Source of the DNA: an uncultured Candidatus Saccharibacteria bacterium
Lineage (GTDB): Bacteria > Patescibacteriota > CALEFQ01
DNA: 34,735 nt
Assembly: GCA_964391305.1 (NCBI GenBank)
Contig: CAYMJO010000004.1
Location: 1-34,735, forward strand
Direction: 5' to 3'
Part shown: in pieces, positions 1,731 to 2,278 of the stretch
Position numbering within the stretch: the stretch's first letter is position 1
Layout: each line of letters starts with the position of its first letter
Notes under the pieces: generated by a model
Seen by the model: the letters and a program-made list of their open reading frames with translations, nothing else
Database searches by the model: none
What the model was told of the DNA's origin: nothing
Program-made: the position numbers and the translations under genes

Positions 1731-1817
1731 TGGTGCCGACGGTGGGAGTCGAACCCACATGGCCGTGAAGCCATGCGATTTTGAGTCGCACGCGTATACC
1801 AGTTCCGCCACGTCGGC
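1731..1817 (-). tRNA. tRNA-Leu (anticodon CAA), 87 nt, encoded CCA
   Basis: GCCGACG/CGTCGGC acceptor stem then A-CCA; TGCGA-CTCAAAA-TCGCA anticodon arm; long variable arm TGGC..GCCA; GTGGG-TTCGACT-CCCAC T arm. Confidence 0.97.
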
Positions 1818-1822
1818 TTAGC

Positions 1823-2056
1823 TTAGAAGTTTTTTAAGTATTCCTTTCCACATCCCGATTTTAGATATTTTTCTCTTTTTCTAGCTTCGATTCTCGAGTC
1901 ATATTTTTCAATCATTATGATTTGAAAGGGTCTATACGATTTAGTTGTCTTATTATATCCTTTATTATGTTGCTCAATTCGGCGCCTTGGGTTATCTGAT
2001 ATACCTACGTAGATGTAGACATTTTTTAGACTTTTGAGAGCATATACGTAGTACAT
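1823..2056 (-). CDS. stand-alone GIY-YIG nuclease family protein, 77 aa
   Basis: MYYVYALKS..YIYVGISDNPRRRIEQHN..G..TT..YRP..E..EARKREKYLKSG matches the small GIY-YIG pattern (Y, YxG, R, H, E). Confidence 0.9.
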   Translation of the reverse strand: MYYVYALKSLKNVYIYVGISDNPRRRIEQHNKGYNKTTKSYRPFQIIMIEKYDSRIEARKREKYLKSGCGKEYLKNF

Positions 2057-2069
2057 AGTGTTTTTACTT

Positions 2070-2134
2070 ATGCGATTTTGAGCCTGCCTGCCGGCAGGCA
2101 GGTCGCACGCGTATACCAGTTCCGCCACGTCGGC
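2070..2134 (-). pseudogene. duplicated 5' half of tRNA-Leu(CAA) with a 20-bp palindromic insertion in the anticodon arm
   Basis: 2070-2140 is identical to 1773-1823 except for CCTGCCTGCCGGCAGGCAGG at 2083-2102; no variable arm, T arm or 3' acceptor strand. Confidence 0.92.
2083..2102. repeat. perfect 20-bp GC-rich palindrome CCTGCCTGCCGGCAGGCAGG (REP-like)
   Basis: Equals its own reverse complement; absent from the intact tRNA copy. Confidence 0.95.
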
Positions 2135-2227
2135 TTAGCTGCCTTTGAATATTTTTTATAAAGATTTTGACTAGAACCACATTGGGTTCTGGGCAACAAG
2201 CCTTTTTGTTTTGCCCAATCTGCGTCT

Positions 2228-2278
2228 ATTATAATTGGCAAAAGTCCACTTGTCAATTTGAGAAAATCGGGATATACT
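2228..2278. promoter_or_regulatory. divergent sigma70-type promoters with overlapping -35 boxes
   Basis: Minus strand TTGACA(2256-2251)-17-TATAAT(2233-2228) toward the tRNA/GIY-YIG unit; plus strand TTGTCA(2250-2255)-17-TATACT(2273-2278) toward parA. Confidence 0.75.

Follow-up and report, generated by a model that had tools for sequence, protein, structure and literature searches.

The stretch of DNA considered here, a window of 34,735 nucleotides (nt) covering positions 1 to 34,735 of contig CAYMJO010000004.1 from an uncultured Candidatus Saccharibacteria bacterium (assembly GCA_964391305.1), raises the question of how a nuclease gene of only 77 codons came to lie between a broken and an intact copy of the same tRNA gene. 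The gene encodes a GIY-YIG domain, and the broken tRNA copy is split by a perfect 20-bp palindrome, hereafter called PAL. All coordinates are those of the window, with the locus read along the minus strand; the genome to which the window belongs, G000, comprises 0.98 Mb with 40% G+C in 90 contigs. We judge it reasonably probable that the locus is an integrase-free selfish cassette, which rides tRNA promoters, keeps the tRNA through a partial duplication of its gene and spreads by recombination on tRNA homology. An earlier reading of the window's letters, the original prediction, had proposed a small selfish unit that lacks an integrase or transposase, leaves one tRNA intact and lies downstream of the tRNA promoter, and our analysis bears out this proposal.

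On the minus strand, the locus runs from a promoter through an 87-nt leader, a PAL-split 5′ copy of tRNA-Leu, a 13-nt linker, the 77-codon open reading frame (ORF) and five bases to the intact tRNA-Leu(CAA), the only tRNA that ARAGORN called in the window. This order, the repeats, the palindrome, the ORF and the intact tRNA had all been described correctly in every particular by the original prediction. The features are as follows.

1731–1817, minus strand: intact tRNA-Leu(CAA) gene (ARAGORN; Rfam RF00005, 58.9 bits against a gathering score of 29)
1773–1823, minus strand: downstream copy of the 51-nt repeat, made up of a 6-nt leader (AGCTAA) and tRNA positions 1–45 (exact repeats; alignment 51/51, s=-5, y=45)
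1823–2056, minus strand: 77-residue GIY-YIG ORF, coding 1826–2056, stop codon TAA 1823–1825 (Pfam PF01541)
2057–2069, minus strand: linker of 13 nt from the end of the pseudo-tRNA to the ATG, with no obvious Shine-Dalgarno sequence (sequence reading)
2070–2082, minus strand: pseudo-tRNA part A2, the remaining anticodon loop and the 3′ strand of the anticodon stem, tRNA positions ~33–45 (13-nt exact repeat)
2083–2102, no strand assigned: PAL, perfect 20-bp palindrome CCTGCCTGCCGGCAGGCAGG at the 5′ edge of the anticodon loop of the pseudo-copy (inverted repeat)
2103–2140, minus strand: pseudo-tRNA part A1, the 6-nt leader and tRNA positions 1 to ~32, comprising the acceptor 5′ strand, D arm and anticodon stem 5′ strand (39-nt exact repeat)
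2141–2227, minus strand: leader from the promoter to the pseudo-half (sequence reading)
2228–2256, minus strand: consensus sigma-70-type promoter TTGACA-17-TATAAT, 12/12 (pattern scan)

The two tRNA copies share a 39-nt exact direct repeat (1785–1823 = 2102–2140) and a 13-nt exact repeat (1773–1785 = 2070–2082) that overlap by one base. As a result, the 51 nt at 1773–1823 recur at 2070–2140 as 71 nt with exactly 20 extra bases, and because the upstream copy is longer by precisely this length, PAL can be read as a clean insertion without target duplication. PAL itself is a perfect 10+10 palindrome, CCTGCCTGCC/GGCAGGCAGG, and its junction, ambiguous by 1 nt, falls between tRNA positions 31 and 32 or between 32 and 33, at the 5′ edge of the anticodon loop. 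In the predicted structure of the pseudo-copy, the PAL hairpin falls within the retained anticodon stem. The last base of the ORF stop codon (1823) is also the first base of the repeat. The linker is not conserved in sequence and varies from 0 to 34 nt in relatives, and the intact tRNA-Leu(CAA) is 93% identical to that of the same-family genomes G003 and G004. The promoter, ~90 nt upstream of the pseudo-half, is the sole 12/12 site among the 4 sites of the scan (shuffles, 1.8 ± 1.1); judging from the sequence, it is presumably the native tRNA promoter, which would now drive the ORF as well.

Several other accounts of this layout were discarded. A tRNA intron or a split tRNA does not fit, as the downstream tRNA is complete alone and the upstream half has no 3′ partner; an Rfam search of the window at E ≤ 1 returned only the tRNA and a chance-level match on the opposite strand, with no ribozyme or splice structure. 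PAL lacks the T-run of an intrinsic terminator, and the terminator scan gave 0 terminator-like sites. The unit encodes only the 77-residue ORF, and no recombinase was found within ~4 kb, where the neighbours are a SIS-domain protein, an NAD-epimerase, ParA, ParB and RelA/SpoT. The earlier statement that integrase and transposase are absent thus stood, and an integrase-type tRNA island was rejected, with the repeat representing the 5′ part of the tRNA.

The arrangement recurs well beyond the window. Within the window's own genome, all four GIY-YIG paralogs (4/4) lie 8–46 nt from a same-strand tRNA (Leu-CAA; Leu-TAA with Cys upstream; Lys-TTT; Met), a proximity with a chance expectation of ~0.7% per ORF, and these paralogs are mutually only 38–41% identical. 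Among 61 same-phylum genomes, own genome included, 44 contained a protein match at E ≤ 0.001, with 0–12 matches per genome and some matches carrying stop codons. A same-strand tRNA was present within ~150 nt at 20 of 27 re-found relatives' loci (two of the 29 relatives' loci, L014 and L030, had no tblastn match and stand outside this count), and a same-strand tRNA within 300 nt at 57 of 79 distinct genome ORFs. Moreover, we examined 80 metagenome loci picked by protein similarity alone, which are 49–75% identical to the window protein, comprise 68 distinct ORFs at 97% and are kin, not independent. Seventy-four of them had a same-strand tRNA within 130 nt (Leu of any anticodon in 65, Asn in 5, and Met, Lys, Asp and Arg in 1 each), located downstream of the ORF in 65 and solely upstream in 9. 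The 5′ part of the locus's own tRNA was duplicated directly upstream of the ORF in most of these loci, 44 distinct architectures being measured; in most cases, the pseudo-copy and the intact tRNA of a locus shared at least 95% identity.

PAL accompanies this layout. It adjoined the ORF, at up to 3 mismatches, in 74 of the 80 metagenome loci, in several on both sides; near the ORF it was present with at most 1 mismatch in 68/80 and exact at 20/20 positions in 58/80, despite saturated synonymous sites. It lay within 150 nt upstream of the ORF in 65/80 and within 300 nt downstream in 24/80, and only 6 PAL sites were found more than 300 nt from an ORF in the 324 kb of these loci. Across the 0.98 Mb of the window's own genome, PAL occurs exactly once, at the window ORF, and the reversed control occurs 0 times. 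Since the layout recurs, the exact PAL is single in its genome and the reversed control is absent, chance is excluded as the source of the arrangement. The original prediction had suggested a survey of small GIY-YIG genes for flanking tRNA fragments and CCTGCC..GGCAGG palindromes, and the outcome was clearly positive, both being found beside homologs.

The three other paralog loci of the genome lack PAL. At G000:C34:900-1500 (L002), the order is tRNA-Cys, a split 5′ half of tRNA-Leu(TAA), a GIY-YIG ORF (40% identity) and an intact tRNA-Leu(TAA); the insertion that interrupts the anticodon loop of the pseudo-half is a double hairpin of ~60 nt and not PAL. The leader of the window locus contains a small hairpin, AGAACC-caatgt-GGTTCT, at ~2174–2191, which resembles the second hairpin, ATCCAGAACC...GGTTCTGGAT, of this C34 pseudo-tRNA. 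The paralog at G000:C55:1-600 (L004) follows tRNA-Met and has tRNA-Met-like fragments on both sides, in which a 16-nt hairpin, TCCCGCC-CT-GGCGGGA, stands in place of part of the anticodon/variable region. The paralog at G000:C22:1190-1600 (L003) starts 11 nt past tRNA-Lys(TTT); behind it lie 7 nt repeated from the tRNA 3′ end and a further repeat element. A second repeat family of ~45 nt (CTCCGCC.../GACTACGCTCG...GGAC... hairpins) was observed directly after tRNA 3′ ends at G000:C71:1-130, G000:C22:1490-1560, L039 and L250 (G003); in G003, this repeat lies within the pseudo-5′ part of tRNA-Leu(CAA), and PAL interrupts 2 of the 3 copies in L250.

Orthologous sites in relatives were then compared. 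The divergent parA/tRNA-Leu(CAA) pair is syntenic across the family and order, and in G001 and G005 it consists of parA, promoter and tRNA-Leu(CAA), a clean empty site without ORF or PAL; empty alleles, which the original prediction had proposed to look for, therefore exist. At the same site, G002 has a truncated PAL and a degenerate pseudo-5′ part, and G003 a pseudo-5′ part split by a different, 46-nt hairpin, both without an ORF. At the tRNA-Cys/tRNA-Leu(TAA) pair, G000 and G004 have an occupied site, G002 an empty one with a 1-nt spacer, and G003, a member of the genus of G004, one that lacks the ORF.

A tree of 79 ORFs, built on 75 columns, placed a Chitinophagaceae copy as the nearest relative of the window protein in the genome set (60–61% identity; Shimodaira–Hasegawa-like approximate likelihood ratio test (SH-aLRT) 97), and this copy is also at tRNA-Leu(CAA). 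Seven of 8 PAL-linked ORFs, from different genomes and at six tRNA types, fell into one 10-row group with support 94, and ORF clades followed tRNA type across genomes for Ser, Gln, Ala, Lys, Cys and Pro. The truncated tRNA copy always contains a small GC-rich hairpin insertion, which is PAL in the window's ORF clade; other ORF clades have other hairpins, of the type TCC(C)GCC-loop-GGCGG(G)A. Hairpin type changed 14 times on the tree against a shuffle mean of 22.2, with 0/300 shuffles at 14 or fewer; in this classification, the label PAL2 stands for a loose regular expression that may include chance hairpins, and "none" means that neither of the two patterns matched. From the 74/80 loci, the tree and the narrow spacing described below, PAL is, on sequence evidence, linked to the ORF clade of the window. 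Members of the family at tRNAs with hairpin-split pseudo-copies were also found in metagenome-assembled genomes labelled as Planctomycetales, Omnitrophota and gammaproteobacterial, and in Longitalea.

Subsequently, we characterized the 77-residue protein. It matched the Pfam GIY-YIG family PF01541 with 64.8 bits (cut-off 22.6; E 9.2e-18) over residues 1–67, and its best phmmer matches in PDB were the UPF0213 protein EF2693 (1ywl; 3.3e-5) and SLX1 (6seh; 1.6e-3). The AlphaFold model (predicted local distance difference test, 94.7) contains the three-stranded sheet and helices of the GIY-YIG superfamily. Foldseek ranked Slx1 chains at the top, with template modelling (TM) scores of 0.68–0.70 and a probability of 1.0, and also returned UPF0213 BH0048; the I-TevI catalytic domain was a poorer match (TM 0.53). 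A connection of the GIY-YIG gene to Penelope-like elements, raised earlier, found no support, the nearest folds being SLX1 and UPF0213. Y5, G18, R26, H30 and E62 are the same in all 38 homologs compared, and Y16 reaches at least 90% conservation; we take the conserved Tyr...Tyr, Arg, (His) and Glu to be the active-site residues, with roles as in I-TevI and UvrC. The C-terminal motif KYLKSGCGKE is nearly invariant, and the protein ends there, at residue 77. Against 14 homologs, nonsynonymous differences per site (pN) were 0.15–0.23 versus synonymous differences (pS) of 0.66–1.0, which are saturated; the low pN beside saturated pS indicates that the protein is under purifying selection. With its invariant catalytic-type residues, low pN and confident SLX1-like fold model, the ORF product is predicted to be functional, and it is, by sequence and model, a putative minimal catalytic domain of SLX1/UPF0213 type. 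A homodimer prediction with 2 copies scored 0.03, which gives no verdict either way. No NCBIfam family was found for the protein, and a tblastn search against 50,697 phage records gave no match at E ≤ 1e-5.

The position of PAL within the pseudo-copy varies in a constrained manner. It was found at tRNA positions 32–33 (5′ edge of the anticodon loop), 22–24 (3′ edge of the D loop), 12–18 (D loop) and 6–10, that is, in loops or at stem-loop junctions. The pseudo-copy ends at tRNA positions 15–59, a median of 12.5 nt past PAL, and the distance from PAL to the ATG has a median of 23 nt (interquartile range 19–28) whatever the tRNA position. PAL position x and pseudo-copy end y were correlated (Spearman 0.84, n=44 distinct architectures), a statistic that leaves aside the nested or double PAL rows L056, L062, L063 and L080 as well as 6 loci with a downstream tRNA that are PAL-free upstream (L078, L081, L082, L092, L114 and loci near contig ends). 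Variants include loci with a pair of PALs or with one PAL nested in another, tandem units, and loci in which a second pseudo-copy, lacking an ORF, separates the ORF from the tRNA. Mirror forms also occur, in which the intact tRNA is followed by the ORF and then by a 3′ pseudo-copy with PAL; a Chitinophagaceae example has PAL in the T loop. On either side of the ORF, PAL is always in the non-functional tRNA copy. The earlier idea that the unit inserts at the anticodon arm does not hold for the family, in view of palindromes at tRNA positions 6–33, duplication ends at 15–59 and the mirror forms.

Three further roles for PAL were rejected on these grounds. As a mark that protects the allele, another suggestion of the original prediction, PAL is unlikely, since the same allele retains an intact tRNA copy. 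As an operator in the 5′ untranslated region or a stabilizer of the ORF mRNA, it is misplaced in the mirror forms, which have PAL downstream of the ORF in the 3′ pseudo-copy. As a P-nucleotide or hairpin-opening scar, it does not fit, having a sequence that bears no relation to its flanks and is the same at unrelated sites. Two observations on geometry stand apart. On a viral contig (L339:2239-2330), ARAGORN calls a 92-nt tRNA-Met with PAL as its long variable arm, and PAL insertion in the variable loop may leave a foldable tRNA. In Longitalea L261 (G063:C11:46300-48400), one intact tRNA-Met is preceded by three pseudo-tRNA-Met units in tandem and followed by three tandem 341-bp units, each with an ORF, a hairpin-split 3′ pseudo-tRNA and a terminator, a natural tandem amplification.

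PAL is also a dispersed repeat. A scan of one genome per species returned at least 120 exact PAL stretches, where ~0.5 would be expected for a random 20-mer in 596 Gb. The matches listed are labelled as coming from Patescibacteria classes, Bacteroidota (cultured isolates too), Omnitrophota, Planctomycetota, Gamma- and Deltaproteobacteria, Bdellovibrionales, Thermodesulfovibrionales and Chloroflexi, and a tRNA lay within 700 nt at 9 of the 80 listed species-genome PAL loci. Copy numbers reached 67, 49, 25 and 20 per genome, with the reversed control at 0 everywhere. At up to 2 mismatches, PAL was present in 22 of 61 relatives' genomes, namely in 21/44 GIY-positive versus 1/17 GIY-negative ones, which are kin and not independent. 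Some PAL variants (subfamilies) are specific to one genome and have multiplied there, a pattern that points to local master copies as the source. Repeats that are identical in all else either contain or lack PAL, as seen for an unrelated repeat in G003, with no target duplication, and PAL occupies the loops of other hairpins or of itself above random, a flanking stem of at least 7 bp being found at 9/81 sites versus 2% of controls. Longitalea has PAL copies embedded in arrays of a 7-nt tandem repeat (...GCG–PAL–TT...), and copies such as L140, L170, L174 and L198 seemingly lie within coding sequence, where 20 nt would shift the frame.

Our favoured explanation assigns each part of the locus a role. 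Well supported at its core is a mobile selfish unit, free of an integrase, that resides within tRNA transcription units and saves the tRNA by duplicating part of its gene. The nuclease gene, ~231 bp and promoterless, lies between the truncated and the intact tRNA in the same orientation and would therefore be transcribed from the tRNA promoter, with tRNA function kept. The pseudo-copy and the intact copy would form two portable homology arms matching one conserved gene in any recipient, and a new genome could acquire the cassette when it recombines or homes into the corresponding, highly conserved tRNA gene there. The same repeats would permit tandem amplification and precise loss by recombination. 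With occupied sites, tandem units and empty or remnant sites all seen, recombination is the most economical route of spread. The nuclease, probably structure-selective like SLX1, would stimulate such events by nicking or cutting hairpin or cloverleaf tRNA DNA. Regarding PAL, we lean only tentatively toward a co-adapted cis element or substrate of the nuclease, a role that we rank as likelier than that of a mere passenger. The original prediction had named a cognate site and a second passenger among its options for PAL, which is indeed dispersed independently in many phyla yet inherited with this ORF clade.

Several observations weigh against this explanation. The catalytic domain fills all 77 residues, and a DNA-binding or targeting module, as found in I-TevI or SegB, is absent, which makes site-specific homing hard to explain. 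The expression, action and transfer of the cassette are inferred from its sequence. The local tRNA sequence between PAL and the ORF at each newly colonized tRNA type is left unexplained. Units of pseudo-tRNA, hairpin and intact tRNA without an ORF exist, with spacers of only 6–24 nt, and the duplication may thus be tied to the hairpin, not the ORF. In the profile search of the 80 listed species-genome loci, a GIY-YIG ORF lay within 500 nt at just 2/83 PAL sites, and among 42 PAL sites on viral contigs, 1 had a GIY-YIG ORF within 400–500 nt, a full cassette. G069 has 25 PAL copies and no GIY-YIG match at E ≤ 0.001; the best protein match has 39% identity in G063, with 49 copies, and 43% identity in G067, with 67 copies. 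Furthermore, the ORF tree is weakly resolved on its 75 columns and its members are kin, not independent. Finally, k-mer contigs cannot phase the 39-nt repeat, so the linear order of the window rests on the assembly.

This last point leads to the alternative of an assembly artefact, in which the 39-nt repeat was mis-phased: the chromosome would carry promoter and tRNA, and the ORF unit would exist apart from them, in tandem or as a circle. The k=31 contigs do break at the repeat, the ~2x depth of repeat 39-mers (14.8 vs ~7 in the flanks) is compatible with either order, and some short contigs elsewhere terminate in tandem units (L055, L122, L125). Nevertheless, in k-mer contigs from three runs of one study, each junction recurs with 0 differences: X1 record 5 covers 1794–2131, and X2 record 11 covers 1949–2250 and links the 5′ end of the ORF, A2, PAL, A1 and the leader. 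Because the identical linear order is present in dozens of long contigs of other assemblies, including the single-contig genomes G003 and G064 and a 383-kb contig of G065, we regard the artefact as having a practically negligible probability. A domesticated host function also seems very improbable. Here, a housekeeping or defence nuclease would be co-transcribed with tRNAs, for example to repair structures arising from transcription at tRNA genes or to amplify these genes, and the pseudo-tRNA and hairpin would be a regulatory leader. Strong purifying selection, consistent co-orientation and tight tRNA spacing would suit such a role, and tRNA amplification driven by SegB is reported to benefit phages (PMC13096335). 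Yet the family is patchy, the window protein query finding no member in 17/61 relatives' genomes and 0–12 matches per genome; some matches have stop codons, orthologous sites are empty in relatives, and the mirror forms have PAL and the pseudo-copy downstream of the ORF, unlike a 5′ leader or operator.

The two remaining alternatives concern the hairpin. In one, a mobile hairpin enters the tRNA gene and a local tandem duplication, by template switching or flap ligation, regenerates the intact tRNA, the GIY-YIG ORF having settled at the junction afterwards or encoding a structure-specific nuclease that is recruited to such sites. This sequence of events would account for the ORF-less hairpin-split pseudo-copies directly upstream of intact tRNAs (L131 with a 6-nt spacer, L128, L157, G002, G003), for the ORF-less second units in L013, L101, L109 and L117, for the confinement of PAL to the non-functional copy and for the coupling of its position to the pseudo-copy end. 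We consider it improbable all the same: a disrupted single-copy essential tRNA would be a non-viable intermediate unless both steps are one event, the ORF-less units are equally readable as decay products, and the junction ORF in 74/80 loci and the tRNA-type-specific ORF clades go unexplained. In the other, PAL is an unrelated second passenger, a mobilized 20-bp palindrome that lands in hairpin loops, has no mechanism in common with the cassette and survives in pseudo-tRNAs since insertions into functional tRNAs are purged. Its occurrence in many phyla, with as many as 67 copies in a genome and mostly distant from a GIY-YIG ORF or tRNA, its abundance in G069 without a match to the protein, its excess in hairpin loops, its clean presence or absence in the unrelated G003 repeat and its genome-specific subfamilies all speak for such independence. 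We nonetheless think it unlikely, given that the sole exact PAL of the own genome sits at the window ORF while the three other pseudo-tRNA-bearing paralog loci have none, that PAL occurs in 74/80 loci picked by protein alone and follows the ORF clade on the tree, that its distances to the pseudo-copy end and the ATG are narrow, and that GIY-positive genomes contain it far more often than GIY-negative ones (21/44 versus 1/17; kin, not independent).

Among known systems, SegB of phage T4, an enzyme that also has a DNA-binding region, is by analogy an experimental precedent for the selfish cassette, as a GIY-YIG enzyme at tRNA genes with tandem amplification. According to PMC2330249, SegB is a GIY-YIG homing endonuclease encoded in a tRNA cluster and acts on an 11-bp T-loop motif within a 27-bp site; PMC13096335 describes tandem amplification of tRNA+segB units driven by SegB and a statistically supported tRNA association in phages. 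SegB is also reported to be inherited preferentially (PMC2330249, PMC13096335). The likeness lies in a GIY-YIG gene among tRNA genes and in tandem units of tRNA and ORF. In contrast to the phage protein, the window protein has 77 residues, consists of a catalytic domain only, is SLX1/UPF0213-like and is encoded on a bacterial chromosome, where its ORF adjoins a hairpin-split partial tRNA duplicate. Of the features of free-standing homing endonuclease genes, presence and absence at a conserved site was found, and a DNA-binding targeting module was not. By analogy, the cassette would work like a free-standing nuclease gene with target-gene duplication, minus the targeting domain.

In fungal mitochondria, mobile endonuclease ORFs bring along a piece that replaces part of the host gene, as in the case of Allomyces atp6 and its GIY-YIG ORF, and are accompanied by small mobile GC-rich palindromes, the mitochondrial GC-cluster or double-hairpin elements. 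The cassette resembles them in joining an endonuclease ORF to a duplicate of part of a conserved host gene, with one intact gene and one displaced fragment. It differs in that theirs are organellar protein genes with an in-frame 3′ replacement, whereas the cassette duplicates the 5′ or 3′ part of bacterial tRNA genes and has a single invariant 20-bp palindrome common to several phyla. Repetitive extragenic palindromic (REP) sequences are species-specific, and the REP-associated tyrosine transposase (RAYT) of REPtrons is an HUH/Y1 enzyme; very small dispersed palindromic repeats are also present in cyanobacteria. PAL resembles REP sequences in that tens of copies are scattered over a genome, with some copies beside a small nuclease-type gene, and in its nesting, its genome-specific subfamilies and its lack of target duplication; unlike in REPtrons, its linked gene is GIY-YIG and not HUH/Y1, it is identical across many phyla, and many PAL-rich genomes have no close homolog of the gene. 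That the SLX1-like nuclease and PAL form a new bacterial mobile system, a GIY-YIG analogue of REP/RAYT, is a speculative and rather doubtful extension. In such a system, the nuclease would nick hairpin or cloverleaf loops and move or copy the 20-nt hairpin without target duplication, the tRNA genes would be the home of the autonomous ORF with PAL and a rescuing duplicate, and the stand-alone PALs in at least 8 phyla would be non-autonomous progeny.

Integrase elements usually duplicate the 3′ part of a tRNA as attachment (att) sites. Prophages and islands in tRNA genes leave a complete and a partial tRNA as direct repeats (bioRxiv 10.1101/2022.07.05.498093); they measure 9–121 kb and encode a recombinase. 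The cassette is likewise bounded by direct repeats, a complete and a partial copy of the tRNA, and it differs in being ~0.3 kb long and recombinase-free, with a hairpin-split duplicate of the 5′ part (leader -6 to tRNA position 45). The SLX1/UPF0213 proteins (YhbQ, YazA), a family of structure-specific nucleases named in PMC7017083, are the best sequence and fold matches of the window protein, which differs from them in lacking a C-terminal zinc-finger (PHD/RING) domain or an Slx4-like partner and in that its genes are multi-copy, patchy and tRNA-nested.

In the literature searched, supplementary data (including the SegB neighbourhoods of PMC13096335) aside, we found no account of minimal GIY-YIG cassettes that are nested in tRNA genes beside hairpin-split duplicates of the tRNA. 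Searches combining GIY-YIG with tRNA, duplication or palindrome led to fungal mitochondrial work and SegB; the accessible text of papers on GIY-YIG proteins in Patescibacteria contained no such arrangement, and that of the YhbQ/UPF0213/COG2827 literature did not have tRNA linkage as a subject. The full PAL sequence was likewise not found in the searched literature, where its short sub-motifs matched only unrelated mammalian papers. The element therefore looks like a kind not previously described. Beyond the cassette itself, the parA/tRNA intergenic region at 2287–2356 contains direct and inverted repeats of a TTTGTAATTTGACAT-like motif, and similar TTTGACAT/TTTGTCAT clusters lie beside degenerate PAL copies on G000:C9 and C71; these repeats and their kin may be promoter or partition-related sites.

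As a repeat that is identical in Patescibacteria, Bacteroidota, Planctomycetota, Omnitrophota, Proteobacteria and others, PAL is easily testable, and if our explanation is correct, a 77-residue structure-selective nuclease with a defined 20-bp partner site would be a candidate for a compact tool. At ~0.3 kb, the element would be the smallest self-contained bacterial selfish gene cassette known to us, one that invades essential, universally conserved tRNA genes non-lethally and in which a partial gene duplicate replaces an intron or integrase. It would account for many "partial tRNA" annotation calls, would explain the small "GIY-YIG family" genes that crowd tRNA genes in streamlined uncultured bacteria, and would constitute a chromosomal counterpart to phage SegB.

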